Origin: Bacteroidales bacterium
GTDB lineage: Bacteria > Bacteroidota > Bacteroidia > Bacteroidales > UBA10428
Assembly (NCBI GenBank): GCA_016934395.1
Contig: JAFGSZ010000057.1
Location: 19,421-83,420 of the forward strand
Reading direction: 5' to 3'
DNA length: 64,000 nt
Each line of letters begins with the position of its first letter. Position 1 is the first letter of the stretch. Position numbers and translations under genes: made by a program. Of this stretch, positions 27,408-58,395 are shown piece after piece. The notes under the pieces are model-generated. The model saw nothing but the letters and a program-made list of their open reading frames with translations. It was not told the DNA's origin and ran no database searches.

Positions 27408-28388
27408 TTATAGCTTTCCGGTAGTTTTTTGCATAAACTGTATTCTCTCAAAAGCATGTTTGTTTTCAGCAGCCTTTGAAATTATTCCTTTAAAATCGGA
27501 GATACTATTATATCCTTTATTTTTCATCCAGAATTCAAGGTTTTTGAGAATCTCTTCCATGTATTCCAAACCGTTTTTATATAAAGCTGAGCATAACTGA
27601 ACGGCATTGGCGCCGGATAAGATATATTTAATGAGTCCTTCGTGGGAATGTACACCTGTAGCTCCTACCATTTCCGACTTTACCAAACCCGAAAGAAGAG
27701 CAATCCAACGTAATGATAATGTAATTTCTTCGGGTGAACTGTAAATGTTTTTTGCAATTACCTGTAGTTTGTCAATATCAATATCAGGTCGGTAATATCT
27801 GTTAAACAATACTATCGATTCTATATCGGTATTGCTTAACTTAAATACTGTACGCACAATGTTTGTGAAAAAATATCCGATTTTTACAGCAATTGGCAGG
27901 TTGGTATTTTTCTTCACCTCACGAACAATATCAATATAAATTTCTTCTATCTGATTTGGTGTTTGTCCTATTTCAGTGGGAGGAATAAAAATATTTAACT
28001 CCAGACCGTCTGCCCCGGATTCTTCAATCTTTTTTGCAAATGAAGGCCATTCTACCGGTGATACACAGTTGATACTGGCAATAACCGGAATGTTAACTTT
28101 CTTTTTTGCTTCCTGAATTAAGGATAAATATTGGGCAACTCCATGATCTTTTGAAAAAGTATCAACAAAATTAATAGCCTCAGGATACCAGAAATACATG
28201 TCGTCCTGACTGTGAAGTTTGCTTTTATCGGCAATTAATTGTTCCTCAAACAGCGATTTAAGCACTACTGCTCCTGCACCGTGATCCTCACATTTTTTAA
28301 TTTTATCGGCTGTGTTGGTTAATCCCGAACTGCTTACTACTAAAGGATTTTTAATTGTTAATCCCATAAATTTTGTTGAAAGATCCAT
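27408..28388 (-). CDS. Dihydroorotate dehydrogenase-like flavoprotein (TIM barrel, DHOD/DHPD family)
   Basis: N-terminus LSTKFMGLTIKNPLVVSSSGLT, then VVLKSLFEEQ and a C-terminal FMN-phosphate-type segment (GATGVHSHEGLIKYILSGANAVQLCSALY). It is the last gene in the hox transcription direction. Confidence 0.75.
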   Translation of the reverse strand: MDLSTKFMGLTIKNPLVVSSSGLTNTADKIKKCEDHGAGAVVLKSLFEEQLIADKSKLHSQDDMYFWYPEAINFVDTFSKDHGVAQYLSLIQEAKKKVNIPVIASINCVSPVEWPSFAKKIEESGADGLELNIFIPPTEIGQTPNQIEEIYIDIVREVKKNTNLPIAVKIGYFFTNIVRTVFKLSNTDIESIVLFNRYYRPDIDIDKLQVIAKNIYSSPEEITLSLRWIALLSGLVKSEMVGATGVHSHEGLIKYILSGANAVQLCSALYKNGLEYMEEILKNLEFWMKNKGYNSISDFKGIISKAAENKHAFERIQFMQKTTGKL

Positions 28389-28414: not shown

Positions 28415-28918
28415 TTATAAAATTATTGATTTCTTTGATTTTTCTGCAGATTCTGAAGAAATATATTCGGTGATATATTTTGTGATAAATTCAAATGCAC
28501 TATCCAGATTCGAAGATGCATCAGAAGTTATTTCTTCAAGAAAATCCCATTGATAACCCTTTATCTGAAGCAAATAGGCTGCCGGGATTTTGCCATAAAG
28601 AGATTGACATAAATCCAGCACAAACGCCGGTGATACGGCATGCATGGTAAACTCCACCTTAGGATTGGGAATAATTTCAGAAAATATATAGTTCTTGTTA
28701 ATATTTAACGAAGCATCGGCAAATATCACAAGATCATAGTTATTTATTGTTGCTGCATCTTCGATATTTAACTGGTAATTCGAATCGATATTAACTCCTT
28801 CAATATGGAACTCAGCAACCCATTTTTCAAGTCTTTCAGCAAGCATTACCCCAAGCGCATCATCCTGGCGCCCCGGATTTCCATATCCATATACCAGTAT
28901 TTTATTTTTCTGCTGCAC
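28415..28918 (-). CDS. hoxW: [NiFe]-hydrogenase maturation endopeptidase (HoxW type)
   Basis: ILVYGYGNPGRQDDALG motif. The size and the position directly after hoxH fit. Confidence 0.85.
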   Translation of the reverse strand: MQQKNKILVYGYGNPGRQDDALGVMLAERLEKWVAEFHIEGVNIDSNYQLNIEDAATINNYDLVIFADASLNINKNYIFSEIIPNPKVEFTMHAVSPAFVLDLCQSLYGKIPAAYLLQIKGYQWDFLEEITSDASSNLDSAFEFITKYITEYISSESAEKSKKSIIL

Positions 28919-28921: not shown

Positions 28922-30373
28922 TCAACTTCTCCGTTTATCAATTAATTGGTCTTTGTGATCGTATAGAGAAATTTCAAGCGGCATTTGTCCAATTGCATGT
29001 GTAGCGCAACTTAAACAGGGATCGTAAGCCCTAATTGACACCTCAACAGCGTTAAGCATTCCCTCGGTAATTTCTTTCTGTCCGGTTAAAAATTTGGTAG
29101 CCACCTGGTTTACCGCATTATTCATCGGCTGATTATTATTGGTGGTAGAAACAATAAGGTTAGCCATTACAATCTGGTCGTTTTCATCAATCTTATAATG
29201 ATGGAACAAAGTTCCTCTGGGGGCTTCTATTAAACCCACACCTTCAAATTTTTTCGTTCCTTTTTTCACGAGTTCTCCCTTTAGCAGGTCGGGATCGTTT
29301 AGTAATTCTTTCATTTTTTCTGCAGCATGAAGAATCTCAATAAGCCTTGCCCAATGCATATGCATTGGCCGGTGACTTGGTTTCCCGTTGGAATATGCCC
29401 TGAATTTTTCAAATTCTTTTTGCGCCAGCGATGTATCAATAAAATCAATGGTATTTAACCTGGCCAAGGGGCCAACAGTATACCAGCCATCGTTTTTCCC
29501 GATCTGTTTCAGGTAGGGAAATTTCATATAACTCCAGCTTCGCACCTCTTCGTCGATGTATTTATTATAATCCTGATAATCCACATCGTGCAAAATTTTC
29601 TTGCCATTGGCATCAACGGCTCGTAATACTCCGTGATATATATCCAGCGCCCCGTCTTTTCTTACCAGGCTTAAATAGCTGGAAGGAAATTCCACAAATC
29701 CATCTATAATTTCTTTATGATTTTTATGATAATCGTGAAAAAATTCAAGCGCTCCCTCCGACCATGAAATCATTTTATCAATGTTCATAGGATCATGCCC
29801 GTTTAGCAAATACTCCTTTTCAGCTTCGGTAAGATGTTTATTAATTCCACCGGGAACAGCGCCGGTTCCATGTATCTTCTTTCCGGCAGTAGCCCTAATA
29901 ACTTCCTGACCATATTTTCGCATCATAACCCCCTGCACGGCCAGTTCCTTATGTTCCATAGCTACTCCAATAATATTTCTTATTGCAGGATCGGCATCAA
30001 TACCAAATAATAAATCGGGGGATGCCAGATGGAAAAAGTGAAGCGTATGTGATTGAAAAAATTGTCCATAATGCATAAGCCGTCGCATTTTTTCACCCGT
30101 AGGTGTTAAACCGTTACCGTTACCGGCACCAACAATTACATCCAGCGCTTTAGCAGCTGCAAGATGGTGACTTACCGGGCAAATGCCGCAAAGACGTTGC
30201 ACAAGCACAGGGGCTTCCCAATAAGGACGTCCCTGAACAAAACGCTCAAAACCACGGAATTCGACAATATGCAATCTGGTTTGTTCAACATTTCCATCGT
30301 TATCAAGATGAATGGTAACTTTGCCGTGGCCTTCCACACGGGTAACAGGTTCAATTGTAATTTTTTGTCCCAT
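28922..30373 (-). CDS. hoxH: Bidirectional NAD-linked [NiFe] hydrogenase large subunit (group 3d)
   Basis: EPVTRVEGHGKV, RLCGICPVSH, and a C-terminal DPCLSCATHA followed by a cleavable extension. Confidence 0.93.
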   Translation of the reverse strand: MGQKITIEPVTRVEGHGKVTIHLDNDGNVEQTRLHIVEFRGFERFVQGRPYWEAPVLVQRLCGICPVSHHLAAAKALDVIVGAGNGNGLTPTGEKMRRLMHYGQFFQSHTLHFFHLASPDLLFGIDADPAIRNIIGVAMEHKELAVQGVMMRKYGQEVIRATAGKKIHGTGAVPGGINKHLTEAEKEYLLNGHDPMNIDKMISWSEGALEFFHDYHKNHKEIIDGFVEFPSSYLSLVRKDGALDIYHGVLRAVDANGKKILHDVDYQDYNKYIDEEVRSWSYMKFPYLKQIGKNDGWYTVGPLARLNTIDFIDTSLAQKEFEKFRAYSNGKPSHRPMHMHWARLIEILHAAEKMKELLNDPDLLKGELVKKGTKKFEGVGLIEAPRGTLFHHYKIDENDQIVMANLIVSTTNNNQPMNNAVNQVATKFLTGQKEITEGMLNAVEVSIRAYDPCLSCATHAIGQMPLEISLYDHKDQLIDKRRS

Positions 30374-30385: not shown

Positions 30386-30934
30386 TTAATCGAATTTTAC
30401 AACTTCATAAGGTAATTTCATCTCATTTCCTGTAATGAGCGCTGTTAATGCATCCCATATCAGGTCTGCGCGGGGTGGACATCCTGGCAAATAATAGTCT
30501 ATTTTTACTACTTCATGACATGGATATACTTTATTCAGGAGTATTGGCAGTTCAGGATCGTTAGGTACAATCTTTTCAGTATTTCCCACAACCGTAGGTC
30601 CATTTAAGTAGGCCTCGTCCAAACATTCTTTAATCGGTATGCCATTTCGCATGGCAGGCAGACCACCCATTATGGCGCATTCGCCAACAGAAACCAAAAT
30701 TTTGCAGTGTTCTCTGAAATCCTTCAGCACGTGTACATTTTCACTGTTACAACATCCTCCTTCGATAAGGCCAATATCACACTTTTTTGTGAATTTCTTA
30801 ATATCATCAATGGGAGATTTATTAAATTCTACCAATTCAATAAGTTCGAGAATTCTGTCATCGATATCCAGAATTGACATGTGACATCCAAAGCATCCTG
30901 CCAGTGATGTTGTTGCTATAACCGGTTTACTCAT
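30386..30934 (-). CDS. hoxY: [NiFe] hydrogenase small subunit HoxY (NuoB-like)
   Basis: SLAGCFGCHMS and GCPP motifs, 182 aa. Confidence 0.9.
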   Translation of the reverse strand: MSKPVIATTSLAGCFGCHMSILDIDDRILELIELVEFNKSPIDDIKKFTKKCDIGLIEGGCCNSENVHVLKDFREHCKILVSVGECAIMGGLPAMRNGIPIKECLDEAYLNGPTVVGNTEKIVPNDPELPILLNKVYPCHEVVKIDYYLPGCPPRADLIWDALTALITGNEMKLPYEVVKFD

Positions 30935-30945: not shown

Positions 30946-31659
30946 TTATGGTTTTGAAACTACCAGATTTTCTATATCGCTTCCAATCGGGTTTTTATCA
31001 TATTTTCTGGTGCCAATAGGCTGGTAAAATCCTTTTTCTTTAACCAGGATTGATCCCACAGGGCAAATATCCATAGCTTTTTGGGCCAGTTCGTCTGTTA
31101 ATTCTTTGCCCAGCTTTGAATCCACACCTACTTCAACCCTGTTGCCTCTTTTGCTGTAGGCAAAAATACTTCTCCCTTTATAATCTTTTATTGCCCTTAT
31201 GCACCGCTTGCATAAAACACATCGGTTTTGTTCTTTAATTATTTTTGGGTGTGATGCATCCACTTTTCTTATTGGAAACGAGAATGGAAATCTGGGTGCC
31301 ATTACATGAAAACGGTATGCAAGTGCCTGTAATTCGCAATTGCCACTCTTTTCACAGGCGGGACAAAAATGATTGCCCTCGACAAACAATAATTCTACAA
31401 TGGCTTTTCGTATTTCATTTATTTCATTTGCATTATTTTCGATTTGCATCCCTTCTGAAACAGGTGAAGTACATGCGGTCATAAGTTTTCCGTTTATTTT
31501 TACCGTGCAAATTCTGCAACCCCCTTTGGGTTTTACACCGGGGTAATTACAAAGTGTAGGTATATAAATTCCGTTCTCCTTTGCTGCATCCACAACAAAT
31601 TGCCCCCGTGTAGCAAGACATTCAACACCATCAATTGAAAATTTTACTATTTTATTCAT
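30946..31659 (-). CDS. hoxU: Diaphorase iron-sulfur subunit HoxU (NuoG N-terminal-like)
   Basis: 2Fe-2S motif (LCNY...GGCRICTV...ACTS), HFCPACEKSGNCELQ, CVLCKRCIR, and CPVGS. Confidence 0.9.
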   Translation of the reverse strand: MNKIVKFSIDGVECLATRGQFVVDAAKENGIYIPTLCNYPGVKPKGGCRICTVKINGKLMTACTSPVSEGMQIENNANEINEIRKAIVELLFVEGNHFCPACEKSGNCELQALAYRFHVMAPRFPFSFPIRKVDASHPKIIKEQNRCVLCKRCIRAIKDYKGRSIFAYSKRGNRVEVGVDSKLGKELTDELAQKAMDICPVGSILVKEKGFYQPIGTRKYDKNPIGSDIENLVVSKP

Positions 31660-31672: not shown

Positions 31673-33481
31673 TTAAAAGTTTGGAATTCTACTTGTGGCT
31701 TCGCTGCCTTCTTTAACAGCCATACTCAGATCAAAACCACTGTCAAATACTTTATTTTTCTGGACTTTTTCTTCGTAAAGATGCCTGAAATTTTTTATAC
31801 TGGACAGTACAGGATTGGCTGCCGTTTGTCCCAGGCCACACCGGCTCGCTTTTAAAATTTTGCCCCATTCCACCATGTCATCAATATCCTGCATTACCCC
31901 TCTGGCATTCAGGATTTTTTTCAGTTTATTTTTAAGCACGGATGGAACGATCCTGCAGGTAGAACAGCTCCCACAAGATTCCTCAATAAAAAAGTCGGTA
32001 AAATTAAGTACTACATCATTTAGCAGTTCTCTGGATCTTCCAAAAATTATAAGCGATCCTCCTGTAGCAAGATCTTCATATCCCAGTATCCGGTTAAATT
32101 CATTTGGCGCAATTAACGCTCCGGAAGGCCCTCCGACCTGCACAGCCTGAGTTTCTGATTTTAAAGCTCCTACCATATCCAACATATCGTTAATGGAAAA
32201 TCCCCATTCCACTTCGTATACCCCCGGGAACCGGCAATCGCCAGAAATACTTAAAAGTTTTGTTCCGGTAGATTCAGTTGTACCAAAAGACTTATACCAT
32301 TCACCGCCATGTAATATTACTTTTACAACTGAACAAAGGGTTTCCACATTGTTTACCACAGTGGGCATATCAAGATATCCTTTTTCAACAGGGAATGGGG
32401 GCCTGTCGCGTGGTTCACCCCTTTTTCCTTCTGCAGATTCAATAAGTGCAGATTCTTCACCACACACATAGGCACCGGCACCAAACTGGATACGGATTTC
32501 AAAATTAAATCCTTTCTTACCCCCGATGTCTTTCCCTAAATAGTTCTTTTTACGGGCATTCTCCAGAATATCTTCAAGGTATTGCTCTAAATATTTATAT
32601 TCATAGCGTAAATATAAGATGCCTTCTGTTGCTCCAACTGCATAACCGGCAATTACCATACCTTCAAAAGGCAATCGCGGAAACTCGGTAAGTATAACCC
32701 GGTCTTTAAATGTTCCGGGTTCACCCTCATCTGCATTACAGAAAATATATTTTTGTTTTCCGGAGGCATTTCGGCAAAATTCCCATTTTAATCCTGTGGG
32801 AAATCCTGCTCCTCCCCGACCACGAATATTTGACTTTTTTATTTCTTCAATAACTTGTGTGGGAGTCATTTTAACAATTTGCTTAATGGCTTCACCGGGC
32901 TTATAGTTAGGATCTAATATCGGACCTATTTTACGGATATTATTGCTTACAACCGACCGGATAAGTTCGGAGGCATTTTTCCCGTCGCCGAAACTTGCCG
33001 AAAACATCTCTACAACCGGTTTTTCTTCTTTAATGTCCCTTACAATTTCTTTAACTCTGAAAGGGGTAAGTTTTGTGAATATTAAATTATTAATGATTGC
33101 TGCCGGTTCCTGATCATTCATACCGATACAGGATGTTTCGAATAATCCAATTTGCCCATCGGGTGTTAATTGACCGAATTTAATACCCAGTTCTTTTTCA
33201 AATGTAGCAGCGACTTCTGCCCGTCCCATCATATTCGAAACCGCACTGTTATTCAAGTAAATCTTATATTTACCGGTTGGAATTAGAGAGAAGAAGTGAT
33301 AAAAGGATACGGTTTGCTCAACATCCACTTCTGACATATGCAAATCTTCTGCTATCTGCGTAACAGCATAATCAGGAATAAAACCAATTTCTGTCTGGAT
33401 GTCTATTAATATATCCATTAAACGCGTTCTATCCTTATTGTACTTACTGATAATCTTTATGATGGCGTTTTTCATAAACAA
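31673..33481 (-). CDS. hoxF: Diaphorase NAD/FMN subunit HoxF (NuoE-like + NuoF-like fusion)
   Basis: GRGGAGFPTGLKWEF, the FMN/NADH region and ESCGSCSTCR 4Fe-4S motif. The N-terminal NuoE-like domain lacks 3 of the 4 cluster cysteines. Confidence 0.9.
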   Translation of the reverse strand: MFMKNAIIKIISKYNKDRTRLMDILIDIQTEIGFIPDYAVTQIAEDLHMSEVDVEQTVSFYHFFSLIPTGKYKIYLNNSAVSNMMGRAEVAATFEKELGIKFGQLTPDGQIGLFETSCIGMNDQEPAAIINNLIFTKLTPFRVKEIVRDIKEEKPVVEMFSASFGDGKNASELIRSVVSNNIRKIGPILDPNYKPGEAIKQIVKMTPTQVIEEIKKSNIRGRGGAGFPTGLKWEFCRNASGKQKYIFCNADEGEPGTFKDRVILTEFPRLPFEGMVIAGYAVGATEGILYLRYEYKYLEQYLEDILENARKKNYLGKDIGGKKGFNFEIRIQFGAGAYVCGEESALIESAEGKRGEPRDRPPFPVEKGYLDMPTVVNNVETLCSVVKVILHGGEWYKSFGTTESTGTKLLSISGDCRFPGVYEVEWGFSINDMLDMVGALKSETQAVQVGGPSGALIAPNEFNRILGYEDLATGGSLIIFGRSRELLNDVVLNFTDFFIEESCGSCSTCRIVPSVLKNKLKKILNARGVMQDIDDMVEWGKILKASRCGLGQTAANPVLSSIKNFRHLYEEKVQKNKVFDSGFDLSMAVKEGSEATSRIPNF

Positions 33482-33652: not shown

Positions 33653-33670
33653 TTGTGAATAAAATAACAA
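33653..33670. promoter_or_regulatory. Second, weaker Rex-like site
   Basis: TTGTGAA-TAAA-ATAACAA lies between the Cys-rich gene and hoxF. One half-site is of the TTGTGAA type and the other is one mismatch from TTAACAA. Confidence 0.35.
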
Positions 33671-33730: not shown

Positions 33731-34156
33731 CTAAAAATCATTATCCTCGGCACCATAATTATATTCAGTATAAAAACTGGTGAGCGTGTCATGGATATCC
33801 TCAAAAGATACATAATGATTTGTACAACCTATCCTGGAACATACGTGTACCTTACCCCCTTTAGCAAGATTAAAATCCACAATTGGCGCCTTACATAAGG
33901 CACATAAAGCAGAAGATGAAAGTTCTGTATGACAATGCGGACAAATCAGCTTTGCTGTTTCATTATCAACAAGATCAACATCACTGAGCTTGTCATAACA
34001 TCCATACGTAGCACACAGATTGATTACCCCCTGCTGGCCGGCTACTTCAATGTGAAGCTTAATACTTGGTTTTGCATTCAGATACTGGGTGTAGTCCATT
34101 AAGGATTTGTTGCAGTTTGGACAGTTCACCTTCAAAGAAATCAGGTTCTTTGTCAT
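33731..34156 (-). CDS. Cys-rich double zinc-ribbon protein of unknown function (paralog of 54033-54440)
   Basis: 141 aa with 10 Cys conserved with the paralog (CPxC...LCxxYGC...CPxCH...CxxC...CSRxGCxxH). A strong SD (AGGGAGGA) lies 7 nt upstream of the ATG. Confidence 0.7.
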   Translation of the reverse strand: MTKNLISLKVNCPNCNKSLMDYTQYLNAKPSIKLHIEVAGQQGVINLCATYGCYDKLSDVDLVDNETAKLICPHCHTELSSSALCALCKAPIVDFNLAKGGKVHVCSRIGCTNHYVSFEDIHDTLTSFYTEYNYGAEDNDF

Positions 34157-34252
34157 AGTAAATCCTCCCTATGGTTAATTAAAACTTATTTCAATATACA
34201 ACAATCATAGTGGATTACCAAGTTTAGCCTTCATATTTTTTATAATCCACAG

Positions 34253-34702
34253 TTAATTTGAATTAATACGTCTAATAATTTTATCAGCTGTTTGTTTTAC
34301 CAATGGAGTCAAATTTTCACCAAAAACAACCGATTCAGGCTGAATTCCCAGAATAAAAACCTTGCCGATAAAAAGTTCCGAGATTTTTTTAAGAGAGATA
34401 TTATGTGTATGGGTTGTAATATTTTGAAGATTTTCTACCGGAATTAATTCACAATAACCGGGATCCCGGTTAAAATTAACAGCATCAACCAAAATAAGTA
34501 CTTCCGGTTTAAAATCATTAATTTTTTTAATATAATTTTCAATACTGATTTCAACACAAAGGTTCCTGATATTTTTTCGTTCTTTGATTTTTTGAGAGAT
34601 ATAAACACCAACTCCGTCGTCGGTTTTCAAAACATTGCCAATACCTACAAATAAAATAGTATTTGTTCCGGTTTCCAGAATATTGATGAGATTCTCAAGC
34701 AC
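34253..34702 (-). CDS. [NiFe]-hydrogenase maturation endopeptidase (HycI type)
   Basis: ILFVGIGNVLKTDDGVGV motif, 149 aa. It is the last gene of the group-4 operon. Confidence 0.85.
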   Translation of the reverse strand: MLENLINILETGTNTILFVGIGNVLKTDDGVGVYISQKIKERKNIRNLCVEISIENYIKKINDFKPEVLILVDAVNFNRDPGYCELIPVENLQNITTHTHNISLKKISELFIGKVFILGIQPESVVFGENLTPLVKQTADKIIRRINSN

Positions 34703-35314
34703 CTAATCAAAAATTTTTACCAGCACTTTCCTCAAACAATTGGGGCATATAATATTGAACATATCTTTTCTTTTTAATCCATCAACAACCTCAACCTGTA
34801 CATCTTTTTGTTGTGCCAGTTTTAATTTTTCATTTAGTATATTTAAATTCAGGATGGATGAATAGGCAATCGATCCGAGTTTTTTATGAAGATACACCAT
34901 ATGCTCTTTTGTGGTGATTACAGCCCCGCAACTTTGACAAATTAATAATTCTTTTTCCTGTGTCTCAATAAGCTCTTTGCGGTTAAATGTTGCCAGGTCG
35001 TAAATGGTATCACTCAGTTTTATCCCTTTTCCGGTGATACAATGTTCCTGGCACTGGCCGCAAAAAATGCAAAGACCATAATTTCGTTCAATTTTCCGGA
35101 TTTTTTTTTCTTTATTGTCCGTAAATTTTATCACCCCCGAAGGGCAGACATTTGTACAGGTTTCACAACCGACACAATGTTCGTTGTCTACAACCGGTTT
35201 ACCCCTGTAGTTTTCACTTGGTGTATGGGGCTTTTTTGGAAATTTGGTGGTATAAGCCGGTGAAAATAATGATACAACTGCCTCACCTACTTCTCTTATT
35301 TTAGGATATCTCAT
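34703..35314 (-). CDS. NuoI/MbhN-like 2x[4Fe-4S] subunit with a C-terminal CxxC...CxxC extension
   Basis: CVGCETCTNVCP and CIFCGQCQEHC, plus an extra CQSCGAV...CPNC segment. Confidence 0.85.
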   Translation of the reverse strand: MRYPKIREVGEAVVSLFSPAYTTKFPKKPHTPSENYRGKPVVDNEHCVGCETCTNVCPSGVIKFTDNKEKKIRKIERNYGLCIFCGQCQEHCITGKGIKLSDTIYDLATFNRKELIETQEKELLICQSCGAVITTKEHMVYLHKKLGSIAYSSILNLNILNEKLKLAQQKDVQVEVVDGLKRKDMFNIICPNCLRKVLVKIFD

Positions 35315-35658
35315 TTTTCCTCCTCTTTATTCTTTTCATTCGCATTTTTATAATGATCAACCACACTTCTGTCTCCCAGTTTTATTCCAAAAATATATGC
35401 TCCCCGCACCAGTGCATGAGCGGCAACAGTGGCTGCAAAAAATAACATAATTATAGCCAGGATGGATTTGATACCGATTTCTTTAAAACCGAAAAAAAAC
35501 AACAAGCTTAGCAGGATGCTGCATGTGCCCAGGGTAACACATTTTGTGGCGGACTGTAATCGGTTATACACATCAGGTAAACGAATTAATCCAATGCAAC
35601 CGAAAAGATTAAACAAAATTCCAATACTTAGTAATATTACAGCAATTATATTATTCAT
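35311..35658 (-). CDS. MrpG/MnhG-like antiporter subunit
   Basis: 115 aa, 3 TM helices, with the LIRLPDVYNRLQSATK motif typical of MnhG. Confidence 0.8.
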   Translation of the reverse strand: MNNIIAVILLSIGILFNLFGCIGLIRLPDVYNRLQSATKCVTLGTCSILLSLLFFFGFKEIGIKSILAIIMLFFAATVAAHALVRGAYIFGIKLGDRSVVDHYKNANEKNKEEEK

Positions 35659-35917
35659 TTAATTTTCTGCCTCCTAAATATTTAGCTAAAGTTAATGTTC
35701 CGATAAAACTCAGGATAATCCATGCAATGCCGATATCAATAATAAACGACCTTTCGGTGATCATGGCAATAATAGCGCAGATACCTACTACAAGAATCCC
35801 GAAAATATCAATGCCCACCATACGGTCAGCAATAGTAGGTCCTTTAATAATTCTGTAAAGACAGAAAAAGCATAAAATAATTTGTATATAAAGTAAAACG
35901 TTTAATACCTGATTCAT
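35651..35917 (-). CDS. MrpF/MnhF-like antiporter subunit
   Basis: 88 aa, 3 TM helices, with the IIKGPTIADRMVGID motif. The internal ATG at 35917 was chosen to avoid overlap with the MrpE-like gene. Confidence 0.75.
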   Translation of the reverse strand: MNQVLNVLLYIQIILCFFCLYRIIKGPTIADRMVGIDIFGILVVGICAIIAMITERSFIIDIGIAWIILSFIGTLTLAKYLGGRKLNE

Positions 35918-35936
35918 ACCAATTAATATAAATTTA

Positions 35937-36422
35937 TTATTCAAAAATCTTTTTAATGTACTTTTCAAATCTTCCCGATACCTGACGACTATATGTTTCC
36001 GGATCGATACTATGCACATAAATCCAATGCACATATAAATCATCATCTATCAAATCCACTGTAATGGTTCCAGGTGTCATGGTTATAGAATTTGCCAGGA
36101 TTGTTTTTGCAATACTTGTTTTTAAACCGGTTTTTACTTTTACGATCCCCGGTTTAATGGGCATTGCAGGATGTAATACCCTGTAAGCCACATCAAAATT
36201 TGCCCTGATGCATTCCCATAAAAATATAAAGAGATATACTACAAACCAGAATATCCGCCTTGGGTGTAATACTTTCCATGGTGAACTGACAAAATATTTC
36301 CCAAAGAAAAGTACTGTAATTAAAGCCATAACTGCACCTACAATAATATTGGCAACAGATATGTTATAGGTTAGCAGTAACCAAAGCCCTACAAGAAATA
36401 CAAAAGAAATTATGTTTTTCAT
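35937..36422 (-). CDS. MrpE/MnhE-like antiporter subunit
   Basis: 161 aa with N-terminal TM helices and the SITMTPGTITVD motif typical of MnhE. Confidence 0.75.
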   Translation of the reverse strand: MKNIISFVFLVGLWLLLTYNISVANIIVGAVMALITVLFFGKYFVSSPWKVLHPRRIFWFVVYLFIFLWECIRANFDVAYRVLHPAMPIKPGIVKVKTGLKTSIAKTILANSITMTPGTITVDLIDDDLYVHWIYVHSIDPETYSRQVSGRFEKYIKKIFE

Positions 36423-36423
36423 A

Positions 36424-37956
36424 TCAATTGCCCAATATTACTGTTGAATAATTTGTGGTATCCAATAAAACATTCACTGCCGGTCCCAGGAAAGAATCCC
36501 TGATGTCTGGCAATATAAGCAGGCTCAATCCAAGGCACAATACAGCCATAAATATCATTACAGCCGTCATGGAAAGAGGAACCTCTTTAATAACTTTCTT
36601 TGGCGCCGAAGTATTAAAAAATGCATACCGCTGAAATTTCATAAACGATGCAAGGGTAATAATACTTACCACAACAGCCAATACTGCCAGTAAATAAAAT
36701 CGTGCCTGAACAGCAGCAAGTATAATAATAAGCTTACTAAAGAAGCCATTAAAAGGAGGGATTCCTGAAATGGCCAGTGAGGCGCTTAATGAAGTTACCG
36801 ATGTAACCGGCATTTTTGAATACAAACCTCCCATTTTTTTAAGGTCCCGTGTTCCCAGGGTATATTCAATTGCCCCGGCATTTAAAAATAACAATCCTTT
36901 AAAAACTGCATGATTCACAAGATGGAACAAACCGCCACCAATGGCTAAAGCTGCCAGGGTTTTATTCCCATTCTTTGCAAGTATAAGCATACCCATGCCT
37001 ACACCAAGAATTACATAGCCCATCTGGCTGATGCTGTGGTAAGCCAAAAGCCGTTTCAGGTCCCACTGGCCAATAGCAAGAAACACCCCAACCACCATCG
37101 ACAGTGTTCCAATGGCCGTGATTAATACTCCTATATCAAAAGAGATAACATACATGTTAAAGAATAACCGGAACAGCACATATAATCCGGCAGCTTTAAT
37201 TACCACACCCGACAGCATAGCCGATATGGGTGAAGGAGCTGATGAATGGGCATCGGGTAGCCATCCGTGAAATGGCATAATAGCAGCTTTAAGTCCAAAA
37301 CCGGCAATAAGCATAAGCTGTGAAAATTCTATAAGCCGGTGGTCCTCACTGGTCTGAAGTATTTCGGAAATATCAGCTATATTCAGTGTTTTTGTGTACC
37401 AGTATATCAGGCCAATGCTGAACAGAATCATGGCTGTGGCTATTCCTCCCAATACCTGATATTTAAAAGATGCTTCCAGTTCTTCTTTTTCAGTGCCAAA
37501 AGCAACCAGGGCATAAGATGCGATTACGGTTATTTCCAGAAAAACATATAAATTAAAAAGATCTCCGGTAAGTACAATCCCGTTTAATCCGGCTACCATA
37601 ATACATAATAATGTATAGAAATTGTTTATGCCGGTATACTTTTCGATATAAGAAACCGAATACAATGCTGAAAGAAACGCCATAACATTAATGATACAAA
37701 GCATAAAAATGCTGAATGAATCAAGAACCAGATATATGGCAATAGGTATATTTTCAACAGGTTCCCATCCCCCGATTTTATAAATTATCGGACTAAAGTC
37801 TGATAAAAAGATATAATTCAGGCTTAGCAATAGCAAACATAAAAATGCTGTAAGTGTAATTATTTTACTGAAGCCTTTGATTAACCTTCCGATAACCGGA
37901 ACAAGAAAAGCAGAAGCTAAAGGAATTACTATAAATAAAGGTATCAGGTTATGCAT
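36424..37956 (-). CDS. MrpD/NuoM/N-like antiporter-type subunit
   Basis: 510 aa, about 14 TM helices, with proton-antiporter-M motifs (GFGLKAAIMPFHGWLPDAH, LLAYHSISQMGY). Confidence 0.85.
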   Translation of the reverse strand: MHNLIPLFIVIPLASAFLVPVIGRLIKGFSKIITLTAFLCLLLLSLNYIFLSDFSPIIYKIGGWEPVENIPIAIYLVLDSFSIFMLCIINVMAFLSALYSVSYIEKYTGINNFYTLLCIMVAGLNGIVLTGDLFNLYVFLEITVIASYALVAFGTEKEELEASFKYQVLGGIATAMILFSIGLIYWYTKTLNIADISEILQTSEDHRLIEFSQLMLIAGFGLKAAIMPFHGWLPDAHSSAPSPISAMLSGVVIKAAGLYVLFRLFFNMYVISFDIGVLITAIGTLSMVVGVFLAIGQWDLKRLLAYHSISQMGYVILGVGMGMLILAKNGNKTLAALAIGGGLFHLVNHAVFKGLLFLNAGAIEYTLGTRDLKKMGGLYSKMPVTSVTSLSASLAISGIPPFNGFFSKLIIILAAVQARFYLLAVLAVVVSIITLASFMKFQRYAFFNTSAPKKVIKEVPLSMTAVMIFMAVLCLGLSLLILPDIRDSFLGPAVNVLLDTTNYSTVILGN

Positions 37957-37959
37957 ATC

Positions 37960-38298
37960 TTATCCTTTTAAACTGGTTACCTTACGAATATCAAATGTGC
38001 CGAACTTCTTGTATATTCGAATCGCCATAGTAAGCAACATGCCTTTGGTGGCCAAACCAATAACAATAGCAGTAAGTACCATTGCCTGGGGTAAAGGATC
38101 TACAAAATTCGTTTGTGCCGGATTTCCGGTGAGAATTGGTGCACTGGCATTTTCAATATATCCGATGAGTACCAGGAACAGATACACGCTAAACTCCATG
38201 AAGGATAATCCAATCACAATCTTAATAATGTTACGGCTCGTAAGAATTCCGAAAAGGCCTACCTGGAATAGTATAAAACATAAAATGTATACAATCAT
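37960..38298 (-). CDS. MrpC/NuoK-like subunit
   Basis: 112 aa, 3 TM helices, with a conserved PLPQAMVLTAIVIG segment. Confidence 0.8.
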   Translation of the reverse strand: MIVYILCFILFQVGLFGILTSRNIIKIVIGLSFMEFSVYLFLVLIGYIENASAPILTGNPAQTNFVDPLPQAMVLTAIVIGLATKGMLLTMAIRIYKKFGTFDIRKVTSLKG

Positions 38299-38732
38299 GT
38301 TGATATCTCTTCTTTATAAATAACCAAAGCGAGAAAAATAGTAAATAATGCAGCCGCAACCTCAACGCCAACCGCAATATTGTACAAAGGAATTACCCCT
38401 GCACTGATGAGTTCGCCTATGTTGCCCTTAGGCAAATAGTTACTGAAAAATATTGTTGTTCCAATAAAAAATGCAAGTACTGCCAGTAGTAAAAAAAACA
38501 GTATCGCCACACTTTCCACAACTGATGAACCCTCTTCCCGGCTTTTCAGGTTCATTACATTGCTGCCAAAGGCAAGCACGAGTAATATAAAAGCGCCCGA
38601 TATAACAGCCCCTCCGGCAAAACCGCCACCGGGAGTAAGGTGCCCATGGACAATAATATAAATGCCATACATAAAAATAATACCAACCATAAGCTGGGCA
38701 ACTTTTTTTACTATGGGTGACATTCCGTGCAT
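38295..38732 (-). CDS. MrpB/MnhB-like subunit (C-terminal part, MbhF-like)
   Basis: HGHLTPGGGFAGG motif, 4 TM helices. Confidence 0.75.
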   Translation of the reverse strand: MHGMSPIVKKVAQLMVGIIFMYGIYIIVHGHLTPGGGFAGGAVISGAFILLVLAFGSNVMNLKSREEGSSVVESVAILFFLLLAVLAFFIGTTIFFSNYLPKGNIGELISAGVIPLYNIAVGVEVAAALFTIFLALVIYKEEIST

Positions 38733-38751
38733 ATCTTAATATTAAATTGTT

Positions 38752-39309
38752 TTACTTCCTGCCTTTTAATCTTAAAATAGTCAACACACCAACCACTGCA
38801 GTAAACAGTATAGTTATTTCCCCCAGGGTATCATATCCCCTGAAATCGAAAATTACCCCGGTAACCAGGTTGGCGCTTCCGGTTTTTTCTGCTGCATGTT
38901 CTATATAAGCCGATGACATGCGTGTAACATGCTGACCGAGGGGTTCAAGTTTATCAATAGCCTGGTTAAAGAAAAAAAGGAAAAACAAAGCCAGTACGAT
39001 TACGGTAAGTACATTAAAAACATACTTGGCATTGATATATGAAACTCCTTTTTCTTTTAGTACAATAGTCTCTTTCAAATCTTCTCGGGTACTATCCAGC
39101 ACAACTGCAACCATTATAATCAGTGTTATGGATTCTACAACAATCTGAACTATTGCCAGGTCTGGAGCTTTTAGCAGCAAAAAACAGATGACCAGTCCAT
39201 ATCCCACAATTCCACAGGCAATCAGCGCCGATAGTAAATCTTTTGCAAATAATGCATAAAGCGCCCCGGCAATCATAAACAATAACAATATGGACAGAAT
39301 CAATTCCAT
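38752..39309 (-). CDS. MrpA C-terminal/DUF4040 + MnhB N-terminal-like subunit (MbhD/E-like)
   Basis: A TM-rich N-terminus and the NLVTGVIFDFRGYDTLGE motif of the MnhB domain. Confidence 0.7.
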   Translation of the reverse strand: MELILSILLLFMIAGALYALFAKDLLSALIACGIVGYGLVICFLLLKAPDLAIVQIVVESITLIIMVAVVLDSTREDLKETIVLKEKGVSYINAKYVFNVLTVIVLALFFLFFFNQAIDKLEPLGQHVTRMSSAYIEHAAEKTGSANLVTGVIFDFRGYDTLGEITILFTAVVGVLTILRLKGRK

Positions 39310-39322
39310 GTATGCAACCTTT

Positions 39323-41200
39323 TTACATTAAAAGAAAAATAAACATAATAATAAGCCCGGCAAGTACCCAGAAAGCCAGGTTCGATAAAATTCCATTATG
39401 GGCAGCGCTAAAAAAATGACTGATTTTTAATACACTATTTTTTGAGAGTTCATAAATATCAAACCATTTTTTCTCTGCCGCTTTATAGAAAATTGAGAAG
39501 AATGAGGAATTTTTAATCGTATCATAAAACTCAGTGGTTTCAAATCCTGCCTGGTCCCTAAAGGTTTCTCCGCCAATAAAACTGTCTTCTGTTCTGAATT
39601 TTTTAAGGGTAAGTGTAAAATATATAGCGATGCCAAGCAGAATGGAGATAATTATCAACAGAGATATAGCAGAAGAATTCCAAAGGCCGGAATATAAAAT
39701 TTCACCGGTAACAGGTGTAAAAATTTGTGGTATTACCCGGTTTGAAGCCATAACCCCAAAACCAATGCAGGCAACTGCCAGGATAATTTGTGGCAGCCAC
39801 ATTAGCCAGTTAACTTCCTTAATTTCCTTTAATGATGTTTTTTGCCGTCCCAGGAATATTCCGGATATAAATTTTATGAAGCTGGCCAGTGTAAGGGCCG
39901 AACCAATAACTGCAAGCGCAAGCCAGAGTATCCATAGTTGATTGGCAATGCCTGTACCGGTACCAAATTCAATAATTCCCTGGTAGATGAGCCATTTAGA
40001 TGCAAATCCGTTTAATGGCGGAATTCCGGAAATTGATAACGCAAATACAAGGGCACAAATAAATGTTACCGGCATAAATTTACTTAGCCCCCCGAGTTGT
40101 TCAAGATTGTCTTTTCCGGAAGCTTTCTTAATACTTCCTGCTACAAGAAATAGTCCGCTCTTGTATAGTGCATGATTGACCATATGAAATAATCCACCAA
40201 CAATACCGAGCACTGAACCTAATGCTATTCCGGTAACCATATATCCTACCTGAGAAACGGCATGATATCCGAGAAGTCTTTTATAATTGTGCTGAACAAG
40301 GGCCATCATTACTGCAATAATAATGGTAGAAGTTCCTAAAATGAGCACAACCAGCCTTATCCAGCTGCTTACCTCAAAAAGGTCGTTAAATATTCGAGCC
40401 AGAAAATATATTCCCAGCAATTTATCAAGCGAAGCCGGCAGATAAGCTGATGCAGGAGCAGGAGCCGATTCCGTGTAATCCGGAATCCAGGTATGGAAAG
40501 GAAAAGCTCCGGCTTTTGTAAAACTGCCTACCAAAAGACAGAAAAAGGCTGTAATGCTTAAACCGTTGGTTGTAGGAATACCTGCCCGGGTAAAATCAAA
40601 GCTTCCCGAAATTTTCCAGAGTATAGCAATACCTAATATCATTAAACCATCGGAAGCCCCGACAAGGATTAAGGTTTTTTTAGCTGCTGCCGAGCTTATC
40701 TCATCGTGAGCGTTTATAAGCTTATACAGTGTAATTCCAAGGAAACCCCAGAAAAATACAAACACCAGTAAATTGCCTGTTAAAACAGTTATTACCGACG
40801 CGCCCAGGGTAAATAACATATATGAATAAAAATGGGAAATGCTATTTTCTTTTGCAGTGAATGCTGTATAGTATATGGTTATGAGAAATGAAAAAAAGCA
40901 AATAAAAAGGCTCACCAGCCGGGCCAGGGGATCAATATTGCACAGCAGAAGACTACTGGCGGCTACATTAAAATAAGTTATACCGGCAGGTAAAACAGAA
41001 TACTGCTCATGAAGTGATGCGGCAGAATATAAAACAAAAGCAAAATATAGTGAAATACCGCTAAGCATAACCGCAATAATTCCTTTTGTTATTTTAAGTT
41101 TTTCAGGAATAAGAAAAAACAGAATACCTGCAATTAAAGGCAACATGCAAGTGTAAACAACAGGATTAATCAGGTTAATATGCATGAAGTTTTCTTCCAT
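39323..41200 (-). CDS. MrpA/NuoL-like antiporter-type subunit
   Basis: 625 aa with motifs KAGAFPFHTWIPDYTESAPAPASA and LLGYHAVSQVGYM. This is the second antiporter-like subunit in the operon. Confidence 0.85.
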   Translation of the reverse strand: MEENFMHINLINPVVYTCMLPLIAGILFFLIPEKLKITKGIIAVMLSGISLYFAFVLYSAASLHEQYSVLPAGITYFNVAASSLLLCNIDPLARLVSLFICFFSFLITIYYTAFTAKENSISHFYSYMLFTLGASVITVLTGNLLVFVFFWGFLGITLYKLINAHDEISSAAAKKTLILVGASDGLMILGIAILWKISGSFDFTRAGIPTTNGLSITAFFCLLVGSFTKAGAFPFHTWIPDYTESAPAPASAYLPASLDKLLGIYFLARIFNDLFEVSSWIRLVVLILGTSTIIIAVMMALVQHNYKRLLGYHAVSQVGYMVTGIALGSVLGIVGGLFHMVNHALYKSGLFLVAGSIKKASGKDNLEQLGGLSKFMPVTFICALVFALSISGIPPLNGFASKWLIYQGIIEFGTGTGIANQLWILWLALAVIGSALTLASFIKFISGIFLGRQKTSLKEIKEVNWLMWLPQIILAVACIGFGVMASNRVIPQIFTPVTGEILYSGLWNSSAISLLIIISILLGIAIYFTLTLKKFRTEDSFIGGETFRDQAGFETTEFYDTIKNSSFFSIFYKAAEKKWFDIYELSKNSVLKISHFFSAAHNGILSNLAFWVLAGLIIMFIFLLM

Positions 41201-41201
41201 C

Positions 41202-42386
41202 TTACAGTTTCAATAGTTTATCTGTTTGTTTTTGTGATATTCGTATCAATTCCTCTCCTCCCAGTATCTTGTGCCCTGATCCAAAATCATAGACACTGGC
41301 CAGTCGTTCGGTGCAGCAATAACATGGGTCAACTGCTGCCAGGGAAATGGTAGCATCGGATATCGTTTGACCGATACACGATTTTTTAAATGTGGCGATA
41401 TTCACATAGCTGGGGGCGCGAATTTTATGACGCACCGGGTAATTTGAACCATTCGTTTTGGCAAAATGAAACACTTCACCACGCGGAGCTTCGGCATGCC
41501 CTGTCCCTATTCCTTCCGGAATGTTTTTCACAACAATCTCAGTTTGTCCTTCGGGTTCTTTCTTTAAACCGTCCAGGCATTGTTCGATAATTGAAACGGA
41601 TTCATACATTTCAAGCAGCCGAACCTTGGCTTTTGCAAATACATCACCCTCTTCGGCCGTAATTACCTTCCAGTTTATAAGCGGATAAGCAGCATAGGGA
41701 TCGTCTTTTCTGACATCAATAGCTATCCCGGAGGCTCTTGCTGTAGGACCCACAGCAGCAAAATCTATAATATCTTCTTTTGTAAGTATACCCACGCCTT
41801 TTGTACGGGCATGGATTACCGGATCATCCATTACGGCTCCAGTTAACAGATCGGTTTTTTTCTTTACCAGATCCAGTATTTTTTTTATCTCAGGAATTTT
41901 ATCATTTTCTATATCCCGACGTACACCACCAATTTTAAACATGGCATAGCTGTTCCGGTTACCTGAAATTTTTTCAAATAAATCCAATACGGGTTCCCTG
42001 TACTTCCAGGCCCACATAAATACCGTATTGTACCCGAGAAAATGACCGGCTAGTCCCACCCACAATAAATGACTGTGTATCCGCTCCAACTCTGCAATTA
42101 TAGTACGTATATATTTCGCCCGGTTTGGGACTTCAATTTCCCCGATTTCCTCGATACAATTTGCAAATGCAAAAGGATGAGAAGTGGAACAAATCCCGCA
42201 TACTCTTTCAACGAGAAAAAATACCTGGTCAAAAGTCTTACTCTCGCTTAGCTTTTCTATTCCCCTGTGATTGTATCCCGTTTCCCATTTAACATCTTTT
42301 ACAATCTCTCCTTCGCAATACAATTTAAACAATTCAGGTTCTTCCTGAAGCGGATGGTAAGGCCCTATGGGAATAATTTTACTCAT
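41202..42386 (-). CDS. Group-4 membrane-bound [NiFe] hydrogenase large subunit (NuoD/MbhL/HycE-like)
   Basis: N-terminal RVCGICSTSH and C-terminal DPCYCCTER, followed by a ~33-aa extension. Both Ni-binding Cys pairs are present. Confidence 0.9.
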   Translation of the reverse strand: MSKIIPIGPYHPLQEEPELFKLYCEGEIVKDVKWETGYNHRGIEKLSESKTFDQVFFLVERVCGICSTSHPFAFANCIEEIGEIEVPNRAKYIRTIIAELERIHSHLLWVGLAGHFLGYNTVFMWAWKYREPVLDLFEKISGNRNSYAMFKIGGVRRDIENDKIPEIKKILDLVKKKTDLLTGAVMDDPVIHARTKGVGILTKEDIIDFAAVGPTARASGIAIDVRKDDPYAAYPLINWKVITAEEGDVFAKAKVRLLEMYESVSIIEQCLDGLKKEPEGQTEIVVKNIPEGIGTGHAEAPRGEVFHFAKTNGSNYPVRHKIRAPSYVNIATFKKSCIGQTISDATISLAAVDPCYCCTERLASVYDFGSGHKILGGEELIRISQKQTDKLLKL

Positions 42387-42395
42387 TTAAATCTT

Positions 42396-42830
42396 TTATT
42401 TTTCAATTCGATATGGGTAAACGCCTTCAGCCCAGTTTCCTTCTGAAATTAATTTCTCCAGATTGGGATGATTTAAAAAATCAATTCCCAGTATTTCATG
42501 CATCTCCCGTTCAATCCAGTTAGCAGCCTCAAAAAGCCCTGTTAAGGATTCAATTGCAGTTTTTTTTGCTGGCAGAATTACATGCAGGTTTACTATCTCC
42601 CCATTTTTATCATTGCTGAAATGGTAATAAATCTCAAAACCCAGATTTGACTGAAGCGCTGAAGCAATAATAAACCGGTAATGAAGATTACTAAAAAGAA
42701 AGTCTGAAATTTTCACAACAGCATCGGGCGAAATATGCACAAAAATTCTCCTGTTATTCTTTTTTTCAATCAGAATAACCTTATCCTTAAAATGCTTTTT
42801 TAATTCGTCTATCTGGAAATCTTTTTCCAT
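42396..42830 (-). CDS. NuoC/MbhK-like subunit
   Basis: 144 aa with the ANWIEREMHEILGI motif typical of NuoC/HycE-N. Confidence 0.85.
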   Translation of the reverse strand: MEKDFQIDELKKHFKDKVILIEKKNNRRIFVHISPDAVVKISDFLFSNLHYRFIIASALQSNLGFEIYYHFSNDKNGEIVNLHVILPAKKTAIESLTGLFEAANWIEREMHEILGIDFLNHPNLEKLISEGNWAEGVYPYRIEK

Positions 42831-42840
42831 ATAATAATCC

Positions 42841-43275
42841 TTATGCAGATTTATGTTGTTCCGGTTTTTTATTCAGCAACTTTACAATTCCGGCAAGTAT
42901 GGCTTCAGGCTTTGGCGGACATCCCGGGATATAGGCATCTACCGGGATAATTTTATCTACCGGGCCTGCAAATGTGTTGCCTTCGGCAAAAATTCCTCCT
43001 GTACACCCACATGCGCCAATGGCCACTACCAATATGGGCTTCGGCGCCTGATGGTAAATCTCCAGCAGTCTTTTCTTATCTTTCTGGTTTATCGATCCGT
43101 TTACAAGCAATACATCGGCATGGCGTATACTGCCCACCAGTAGCATACCAAAACGTTCCACATCGTATCGCGGGGTAAGGCAGTCCAGGATTTCAATATC
43201 ACAATTATTGCATGATGCCCCACCGAAGTGAAACAGCCAGAGTGATTTTTTAAAACAAAATTCTTTAAAACCCAA
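42841..43275 (-). CDS. Group-4 [NiFe] hydrogenase small subunit (NuoB/MbhJ-like)
   Basis: FGGASCNNCDIE, GACGCTGG and GCPP motifs. The TTG at 43275, 11 nt after the NuoH-like stop, is preferred over the ATG at 43341, which would overlap the upstream gene by 55 nt. Confidence 0.85.
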   Translation of the reverse strand: MGFKEFCFKKSLWLFHFGGASCNNCDIEILDCLTPRYDVERFGMLLVGSIRHADVLLVNGSINQKDKKRLLEIYHQAPKPILVVAIGACGCTGGIFAEGNTFAGPVDKIIPVDAYIPGCPPKPEAILAGIVKLLNKKPEQHKSA

Positions 43276-43286
43276 TGTAATAAAGT

Positions 43287-44216: not shown

Positions 44217-44217
44217 A

Positions 44218-44688: not shown

Positions 44689-44698
44689 TCCTTTGCAT

Positions 44699-45523: not shown

Positions 45524-45535
45524 ATATATTATTTA

Positions 45536-46537: not shown

Positions 46538-46541
46538 TTTT

Positions 46542-46559
46542 TTGTTCCAAATTTCACAA
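46542..46559. promoter_or_regulatory. Degenerate Rex-like site at the head of the group-4 operon
   Basis: TTGTTCC-AAAT-TTCACAA has one perfect TTCACAA half-site and one 5/7 half-site. It lies 5-22 nt upstream of the ATG at 46537. Confidence 0.35.
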
Positions 46560-46695
46560 TAATTGGAGTAAATATAATTCAAATGATTATATTTGTCAAT
46601 AAATTCTCCCGATTTTTTCCCGAAAGCTAAAATTACTTATTCACATTTAATTAACGTTTTCTATTAATCTATTATAAAATAAGAGTTTGGAAGTT

Positions 46696-56593: not shown

Positions 56594-56601
56594 AGTAAAG
56601 C

Positions 56602-57021: not shown

Positions 57022-57022
57022 A

Positions 57023-58384: not shown

Positions 58385-58395
58385 ATAATAAGAAT

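Follow-up and report, generated by a model that had tools for sequence, protein, structure and literature searches.

What does a small, cysteine-rich protein do between two [NiFe] hydrogenase operons? The question is raised by a stretch of 64,000 nucleotides (nt) of DNA from a Bacteroidales bacterium, hereafter the window, in which a gene that we call copy 1 (33731–34156) lies between a group-4 operon of the Mbh/Mrp type and a hox operon encoding a group-3, NAD-linked enzyme. A first-pass annotation of the window took its product for a metal-binding accessory or regulatory factor specific to the biogenesis of [NiFe] hydrogenases or to electron transfer in them. The results described below are best explained if copy 1 represents, in Bacteroidales, a widespread family whose members are small, all-beta and about 135 amino acids (aa) long, with two zinc-ribbon-like units in tandem; "ZnR" is our working name for this duplicated zinc-ribbon-like protein and for its family. 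The common denominator of the family is the NAD(H)–flavin–iron–sulfur module formed by NuoE/HoxE and NuoF/HoxF, or more loosely NAD(P)H flavoenzymes, and not [NiFe] hydrogenase. We tentatively favor the idea that copy 1 may bind metal and assist the HoxE/HoxF NADH module, either as a small accessory protein or by docking to it.

Copy 1 is a genuine gene: homologs that are 58–79% identical to its product form 118 clusters (at 90% identity) in Bacteroidales metagenome-assembled genomes (MAGs), and nearly all of them are 141 aa long. The automatic gene call (P0001, 122 aa) begins at M20 (34097–34099) instead of M1 (34154–34156), like about 20 database homologs of 122–123 aa that start at the same internal methionine; this costs the protein its first, invariant CxxC. 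The conserved start is that of the 141-aa form. The ten cysteines are C12, C15, C48, C53, C72, C75, C85, C88, C106 and C111, in the pattern CPNC-x32-CATYGC ... CPHC-x9-CALC-x17-CSRIGCTNH. The first-pass annotation had described this reading frame and this pattern correctly, except for one spacing, which is CPHCH-x8-CALC (the nine residues are counted from C75). It had also proposed that the protein consists of two four-cysteine units, the second one with an additional CxxC. The duplication is confirmed by a profile–profile comparison of residues 4–60 with residues 64–120, based on a family alignment of 42 sequences (probability 95%, E 3.3e-8), in which C12/C15 align with C72/C75 and C48/C53 with C106/C111, and C85/C88 form an insert in unit 2. 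By this duplication, both units go back to a CxxC...Cx4C site. The AlphaFold2 (AF2) model has an all-beta core made of two units (residues 5–118, pLDDT about 90), followed by a helix and a tail that are predicted with low confidence.

An exhaustive profile search, whose query alignment has copy 1 as its first sequence, retrieves 326 clusters (at 50% identity) when the threshold is E ≤ 1e-3, of which 187 reach E ≤ 1e-10. ZnR is thus a sizeable family, which is not curated in the libraries that we searched (Pfam and NCBIfam) and to which these libraries assign no function. Both copies of the window have its defining features, namely eight cysteines (CxxC ... CxxC-x9-CxxC-x17-Cx4C) and two homologous beta-ribbon units in a domain of about 115 aa. 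All but one of the 267 full-length domains keep C12, C15, C72, C75, C85, C88, C106 and C111, and H114 is conserved in about 90% of the family domains. C48 and C53 are gained or lost jointly: the pair is mostly confined to Bacteroidales members, and is replaced by Ser-Ser, Ser-Asp or Ser-Val in about half of the family. It follows from this conservation that the dispensable pair is C48/C53, and not C85/C88, which had been taken for the extra one. Judging from the sequences, the eight invariant cysteines would be enough for two tetra-cysteine metal sites. The ten-cysteine forms found in Bacteroidales would have one cysteine pair to spare within the molecule; it might take part in a site that bridges to a partner protein or within a dimer, or in one that involves His114.

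The domain architectures were counted in the 149 best representatives at 50% identity: 97 are stand-alone proteins, 12 are tandem doubles and, in 18, ZnR is fused to the C-terminus of a NuoE-like domain (PF01257). A full-length NuoE–ZnR fusion heads a cluster resembling those of Nfn-Bfu enzymes, with NuoF-like (two 4Fe–4S), NuoG-like, PyrK-like and GltD-like genes. The N-terminal half of this fusion superposes on the solved subunits BfuC, HydC and StnA (TM 0.81–0.87, E about 1e-14), each of which has about 150 aa and no ZnR domain. Some NuoE–ZnR fusions retain only the N-terminal helical half of NuoE; in the structures of complex I, this half is in contact with NuoF.

The same association is seen between separate genes. 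In a MAG from Zixibacteria and in another MAG, the order is nuoE-like, ZnR, nuoF–gltD fusion, Fer2_4, FMN (flavin mononucleotide) subunit of glutamate synthase, with no hydrogenase. We also scanned metagenomes, using nuoE-linked members as seeds, and considered the best 80 of 561 confirmed stretches, ranked by their similarity to one of these members. About 40 of the 80 have this nuoE–ZnR–nuoF(–gltD)–Fer2_4–gltB-FMN operon, with spacings of 10–60 nt and no hydrogenase, a share that is biased upward by the nuoE-linked seeding. In these operons (for example L067, 7497–13995, and L076–L112), ZnR stands between a NuoE-like protein and a NuoF–GltD fusion of about 1050 aa, which precedes the Fer2_4 and GltB-type FMN proteins; a glutamate dehydrogenase gene is often adjacent. 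The operon is widespread and looks like that of a NuoEF-driven, possibly Bfu-like, enzyme of the glutamate-synthase type, and we found no description of such an operon in the literature that we searched. The fusion of subunits and a position in the middle of an operon are classical signs of physical association. It is on these grounds, the fusion to NuoE and the location between nuoE and nuoF, that we favor for copy 1 a role as accessory subunit of HoxEF, or as its docking partner.

In Bacteroidales, the corresponding module is that of the hox operon. Copy 1 sits 249 nt upstream of hoxEF, which encodes a NuoE-like 2Fe–2S domain fused to a NuoF-like part with FMN and 4Fe–4S binding, and begins 96 nt downstream of the hycI gene that ends the group-4 operon. 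A scan of GTDB species genomes gave 61 loci, all from Bacteroidales/Bacteroidota MAGs, which were classed by tblastn with the proteins of the window. The genes of type 1 (42 genes, 61–76% identical to copy 1) include 38 with enough downstream flank, and the hox operon adjoins ZnR in all 38. In 33 of them hoxEF is directly downstream on the same strand, and one further locus has a broken hoxEF. This linkage holds whatever gene lies on the opposite side, where the same-strand neighbor is hycI in 17 of 36 cases, and alanine dehydrogenase, Rex, histidine kinase or other genes in the rest. One MAG (L009) has two type-1 copies, one behind the hycI gene that closes the Mbh operon (10001–10426), the other before an inverted hoxEF (17950–18372); they belong to different type-1 sub-clades, which hints at Mbh-associated and Hox-associated sub-lineages.

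The paralog that the first-pass annotation had pointed out, copy 2, shares 40% of its residues with copy 1 over 129 aa (E 6e-39), including all ten cysteines, and it is the second-best match of the family profile (P0119, 176 bits). It is located between hypE and hypA/hypB, inside the hypF-C-D-E/hypA-B cluster and on the strand opposite to hypA/hypB. A word-indexed homolog search with copy 2 returned only copy 2, which made it look like an orphan; this was rejected after the exhaustive profile search and the synteny revealed its relatives, the genes of type 2 (21 genes, 40–54% identical), among which copy 2 is a long-branch member. Fifteen of the 21 are divergent from hypA/hypB, and they are usually convergent with hypE. 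No notable inverted repeat was found in the intergenic region between hypA and copy 2.

The linkage to hydrogenase genes is thus conserved in other Bacteroidales genomes, for both types. The proposed specificity for [NiFe] enzymes is not supported, since ZnR is found elsewhere in glutamate-synthase-type operons, beside split gltB genes, in NuoE/BfuC-like fusions and in [FeFe] clusters. It directly follows two split gltB genes in nine metagenome loci where no other neighbor is recognized, and also in L125. In 6 of the 80 metagenome loci, genes for a group-3 [NiFe] hydrogenase and for HydS-type sensory proteins lie about 2 kb downstream of ZnR. One of the tandem doubles (L075) precedes a PyrK-like gene, and the contexts of L070/L071 and L158 (a ZnR–CBS protein) give no functional lead.

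The region between copy 1 and hoxEF contains two sites that resemble Rex boxes, including the perfect palindrome TTGTTAATTTTTTAACAA (Table 1); the pattern search returned 10 matches in the whole window versus 3.2 expected. Of 33 orthologous ZnR–hoxEF gaps, whose length is 213–535 nt, 32 contain the Rex-type palindrome TTGTGAAnnnnTTAACAA with one mismatch or none, at a density of 2.9 sites per kb versus 0.004 per kb elsewhere in the same loci. Such an operator suggests that transcription of hox starts downstream of ZnR, from a separate promoter under Rex control. A scan for terminators and promoters around copy 1 gave no terminator, and nothing else that was convincing, between copy 1 and hoxEF. 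The candidate boxes are likely read by the two Rex paralogs that are encoded in the window. Weaker candidates occur at the start of the group-4 operon (46542–46559) and upstream of the [FeFe] sensory cluster (56176–56193).

Copy 1 is also preceded by a Shine–Dalgarno (SD) sequence, AGGGAGGA, which had been reported as strong and rare in this genome. It is both, its position being one base away from that first given (34164–34171): an SD of at least five nt at the proper spacing precedes only 4 of the 57 genes of the window, the three others being 34703–35314, 35311–35658 and 60468–62261. An SD-like motif is also present at 35659–35680 (mnhG). In a survey of GGAGG-like motifs of at least five nt between positions −20 and −4, 37 of 47 Bacteroidales ZnR genes (79%), of both types, have an SD, versus 10 of 236 neighboring genes with confident starts (4%; Fisher p 5.5e-28), and eight of these ten are mnhG. 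The ribosomes of Bacteroidia sequester the anti-SD and are reportedly blind to SD sequences, with rpsU as a known exception (PMC9976891, PMC7797042). The SD of ZnR genes is therefore a conserved and unexplained feature in Bacteroidales, and a gene family that keeps its SD in Bacteroidia is a natural test case for translation by specialized ribosomes beyond rpsU.

Neither copy of the window has a significant match in the sequence libraries. Pfam-A and NCBIfam scans of both copies gave only generic zinc-ribbon matches, all below threshold. DZR (PF12773) scores 20.7 bits in copy 1 and 24.4 in copy 2, over residues 65–93 or so, versus a cut-off of 27.3. HypA (PF01155) scores 12.0 and 12.8 bits versus a cut-off of 28.9, while the true HypA of the window scores 108. 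HypA carries an N-terminal Met-His-Glu (MHE) motif that binds nickel; the HypA that adjoins copy 2 starts with MHEFS, copy 1 with MTKNLIS and copy 2 with MEKQISL. The methionyl-tRNA synthetase (MetRS) profile PF09334 (tRNA-synt_1g) gives 11.9 and 13.9 bits versus a cut-off of 20.1, and only over positions 109–203 or so out of 391. Another member of the family (P0141) passes this cut-off, with 25.5 bits, only over the zinc-knuckle insertion (profile positions 108–227). No rubredoxin family appears among the best 25 Pfam matches of each copy (E ≤ 10, out of 33 and 49 families), and the rubrerythrin-like domain of NCBIfam is a weak match (E 0.18). Searching the PDB sequences with two family profiles and one member gave nothing significant, the best matches being the Hakai HYB domain (E 0.008–0.04), YfgJ and MetRS (E 0.5–1). 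A Foldseek comparison of the AF2 model to the PDB gave no match at E < 0.3, with weak matches to the zinc ribbons of topoisomerase I (TM 0.26). The first-pass annotation had been unable to assign the protein to a known hydrogenase accessory family (by motif, not to HypA, HypC or the rubredoxins), and the homology searches and structure prediction likewise offered no placement in these families, among the matches listed, or in any other curated one.

If copy 1 is indeed a partner of HoxEF, its role would be that of an accessory subunit or docking module, expressed on its own, for the diaphorase half of the hydrogenase (group 3) whose genes lie just downstream, and it would dock near the HoxE-type [2Fe–2S] domain. 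The C-terminal amphipathic helix and the acidic-aromatic tail (...DxDF) are nearly invariant in type 1 and missing from the fusions, which fits the idea of a docking tether: the free-standing forms would dock through them. Loaded with zinc, ZnR may stabilize the module or gate the access of redox partners; loaded with iron, like a rubredoxin, it may relay single electrons. Copy 2 would be a diverged paralog that has been kept in the hyp cluster.

It may also be that ZnR is a mobile metal domain of NuoE/BfuC-type modules in general, tethered covalently or docked by its tail, where iron would make it an entry or exit point for electrons and zinc a gate for the docking of ferredoxin or flavodoxin. 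This broader proposal, which we regard as distinctly unlikely, would cover NAD-linked hydrogenases, Nfn/Bfu-type enzymes and NuoEF-linked glutamate synthases. It would also include a control by the SD in Bacteroidales, this sequence being readable only by ribosomes whose anti-SD has been freed, for instance those that lack bS21.

Several observations, besides the seeding bias mentioned above, weigh against a partner of the NADH module. In 17 of the 80 metagenome loci, ZnR is followed by a 239-aa protein that has no Pfam or NCBIfam match, then by Dus, with no NuoE/F (L116, 8001–10137; L131, 7947–10121; and 15 more; Dus is the tRNA-dihydrouridine synthase, an FMN/NADPH enzyme). In eight others ZnR follows a MacB transporter, again with no NuoE/F, and one more locus has no recognizable link. 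The AF2 model of a natural NuoE–ZnR fusion consists of two confident domains joined by a disordered linker, with no fixed interface (pTM 0.43), so that ZnR reads as flexibly tethered in this model. In Bacteroidales, the coupling of ZnR to hoxEF is loose, with a Rex operator and presumably the hox promoter in between, and in four type-1 loci the hox operon is inverted and ZnR is still behind hycI. The genes of type 2 sit in hyp clusters and do not adjoin NuoE/F genes; the nuoE/nuoF-like pair that is nearest to copy 2 is at 60051–62261. Last, some fusions point to signalling: CBS domains follow ZnR in 4 of the 149 representatives (a full CBS pair in three of these), and ZnR is C-terminal to a receiver domain in one and to an adenylate cyclase and an AAA domain in another.

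These fusions agree better with the main rival explanation, in which ZnR is not a stoichiometric subunit: it would be a cysteine-rich zinc switch that responds to the redox state or to a metabolite, and controls the expression or the activity of hydrogenases and NADH modules by binding to Rex, to the PucR-like protein, to the HydS pathway or to the enzyme itself. ZnR is a separate unit just upstream of the Rex-controlled promoter region of hox in Bacteroidales, the divergence of type 2 from hypA/hypB is a layout common among regulator genes, and the conserved SD suggests an unusual translational control. In three of the 80 metagenome loci (L099, L132, L144), which belong to other phyla, ZnR directly precedes PucR-like and HydS-like sensory genes, a pair that is also present in the [FeFe] cluster of the window. 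Elsewhere, a tandem ZnR, accompanied by a CBS gene, is divergent from an [FeFe] cluster (rex-hydS-SpoIIE-nuoF/gltD-hydA). We nevertheless consider a regulator to be rather unlikely. No DNA-binding domain is recognizable in ZnR, the predicted isoelectric points are near-neutral to acidic (5.6 and 6.1 for the two copies of the window, with a median of 6.9 in type 1), and the tight placement between nuoE and nuoF and the covalent fusion to NuoE are more typical of subunits. A role in the maturation of [NiFe] hydrogenases, as a metallochaperone or an electron donor in Hyp-dependent assembly, by analogy with HypA or HoxR/HupI, is a more doubtful alternative, which would fit type 2 but not the family as a whole. 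It accounts for the position between hypA/B and hypE and for that of type 1 behind the HycI protease, which is kept when hox is inverted, and it may find an echo in the weak, sub-threshold similarity to the zinc region of HypA. On the contrary, most of the non-Bacteroidales members that we sampled are in operons that have neither hydrogenase nor hyp genes, and some are beside [FeFe] hydrogenases. The latter do not use Hyp proteins. The HypA scores, the absence of the MHE motif and the presence of a true hypA next to copy 2 also argue against it.

The names given automatically to ZnR proteins by JGI and NCBI ("methionyl-tRNA synthetase", "class I tRNA ligase family protein", "DUF1610", "Com") would suggest yet another explanation, a generic zinc ribbon involved in nucleic acid binding or translation (a fragment of MetRS, an RNA-binding zinc ribbon of the DUF1610 type, a protein like Com of phage Mu), whose position near hydrogenases would be incidental. 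Those of the MetRS type are in line with the weak zinc-knuckle similarity that is seen in the Pfam and PDB searches and that brings P0141 above the tRNA-synt_1g cut-off. We find this very improbable: the synteny is too consistent to result from chance, and the proteins are not basic. The assignment of copy 1 as a MetRS or a class I tRNA ligase was rejected, considering that its score is below the cut-off and that, at 141 aa, it lacks the Rossmann catalytic core.

Table 1. Features of the window that are relevant to the two ZnR genes.
Feature	Position	Strand	Basis and remarks
DHOD (dihydroorotate dehydrogenase)-like FMN protein	27408–28388	minus	NCBIfam NF005741
hoxW-type protease	28415–28918	minus	NCBIfam TIGR00072, 54 bits; missed by Pfam
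hoxH	28922–30373	minus	Pfam
hoxY	30386–30934	minus	Pfam
hoxU	30946–31659	minus	Pfam
hoxEF fusion	31673–33481	minus	Pfam PF01257 + PF01512 + PF10589; NCBIfam NuoE/NuoF/HoxE similarities; proposed partner
Rex-box-like perfect palindrome TTGTTAATTTTTTAACAA	33521–33538		Pattern search; 40 nt upstream of the hoxEF start
Second Rex-box-like site, 1 mismatch	33653–33670		Pattern search; same ZnR–hoxEF gap
ZnR copy 1 (type 1)	33731–34156	minus	Open reading frame (ORF) and translation: 141 aa, ATG start, 10 Cys
Shine–Dalgarno-like AGGGAGGA	34163–34170 (about)	minus	6–7 nt upstream of the copy 1 ATG
HycI-type maturation protease	34253–34702	minus	Pfam PF01750; last gene of the group-4 (Mbh/Mrp) operon
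Rex-type redox repressor	46687–47298	plus	Pfam PF06971 + PF02629; the two Rex genes flank alanine dehydrogenase
Rex-type redox repressor	48640–49260	minus	Pfam PF06971 + PF02629
ZnR copy 2 (type 2, hyp-embedded)	54033–54440	minus	ORF: 135 aa, same 10 Cys, no SD
hypA	54700–55041	plus	Pfam PF01155; divergent from copy 2
hypB	55135–55950	plus	Pfam PF02492; divergent from copy 2

The other features of the window deserve a few comments. The NCBIfam matches of the HoxW-type protease and of the DHOD-like protein exceed their cut-offs; both genes follow hoxH in most orthologous loci, where the gene order of the hox operon is shared. The group-4 operon spans 34253–46582 and starts with genes (44699–46582) that resemble those of the beta and gamma subunits of sulfhydrogenase (AsrA/AsrB-like, PyrK-like FAD/NAD), which suggests that this hydrogenase may be NAD(P)H-linked and membrane-bound. 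A third hydrogenase system, of the [FeFe] type, occupies 56249–64000 and 22501–23934. Its cluster consists of PucR-like, HATPase, HydS-like (453 aa, Fe_hyd_lg_C plus FeS), DRTGG, PHP, HATPase, small NuoE-like and NuoF-like (two 4Fe–4S) genes, and a HydG-like radical SAM protein (Radical_SAM + BATS) is encoded about 30 kb from the sensory genes. An Rfam scan of the whole window gave no match.

The existence of a small conserved partner, if confirmed, would matter beyond this locus. NAD(H)-linked hydrogenases, electron-bifurcating enzymes of the Bfu type and kindred iron–sulfur flavoenzymes have been closely studied by cryo-EM, and no solved NuoE, HydC, BfuC or FdsG carries a ZnR domain; such a partner would alter the models of subunit composition and redox-partner docking in uncultured anaerobes, including the Bacteroidales of sediments and digesters that have three hydrogenases in one locus. 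Recognizing the ZnR family would also correct the misleading names "class I tRNA ligase family protein" and "methionyl-tRNA synthetase".

Text searches of the literature gave no description of a zinc-ribbon protein that partners NuoE/HoxE or Bfu enzymes, and ZnR can only be compared to systems that resemble it in part. Like ZnR, HypA/HybF proteins are small and rich in cysteines, with CxxC pairs, and are encoded near hydrogenase and hyp genes, with a weak similarity, below threshold, over the zinc region. They differ by their MHE N-terminus and their single Cys4 site, whereas ZnR has two tandem ribbon units and 8–10 cysteines, is found in contexts that reach beyond [NiFe] hydrogenases, and coexists with a separate HypA encoded beside copy 2. 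The MetRS connective-peptide zinc-knuckle insertion (PF09334) has the same nested CxxC-x9-CxxC flanked by further cysteine pairs, and it is the only curated profile that any member of the family passes, but ZnR has no synthetase core and its genomic context is unrelated. The closest generic matches, DZR (PF12773), Zn_ribbon_6 (PF07191) and the HYB domain of Hakai, cover residues 65–110 (CxxC-x9-CxxC ... Cx4-5C) below significance; the HYB domain is a zinc-coordinated module for dimerization and peptide binding.

Two other systems can be compared to ZnR. Structural zinc sites have been described in HydB/BfuB (the "hinge", or B2 site), as well as the replacement of clusters by zinc in Nfn-Bfu enzymes (PMC9499530, PMC12018979). 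According to the same studies, the zinc of BfuB is bound by Cys and His residues within the NuoF/NuoE-type core, and it is thought to organize mobile domains and the docking of ferredoxin. This site is made of a few ligands inside BfuB, whereas ZnR is a separate folded domain or protein of 115 aa. Rubredoxins of the HoxR/HupI type share with ZnR the CxxC knuckles on beta hairpins and a possible function as a single-electron relay near iron–sulfur flavoenzymes. Compared to these Fe(Cys)4 proteins, one knuckle of each ZnR unit is Cx4C and not CPxCG, and ZnR has two units and an inserted CxxC. ZnR extends the theme of small accessory proteins of the zinc-ribbon or rubredoxin-like type, here attached to NuoE/F-type modules.

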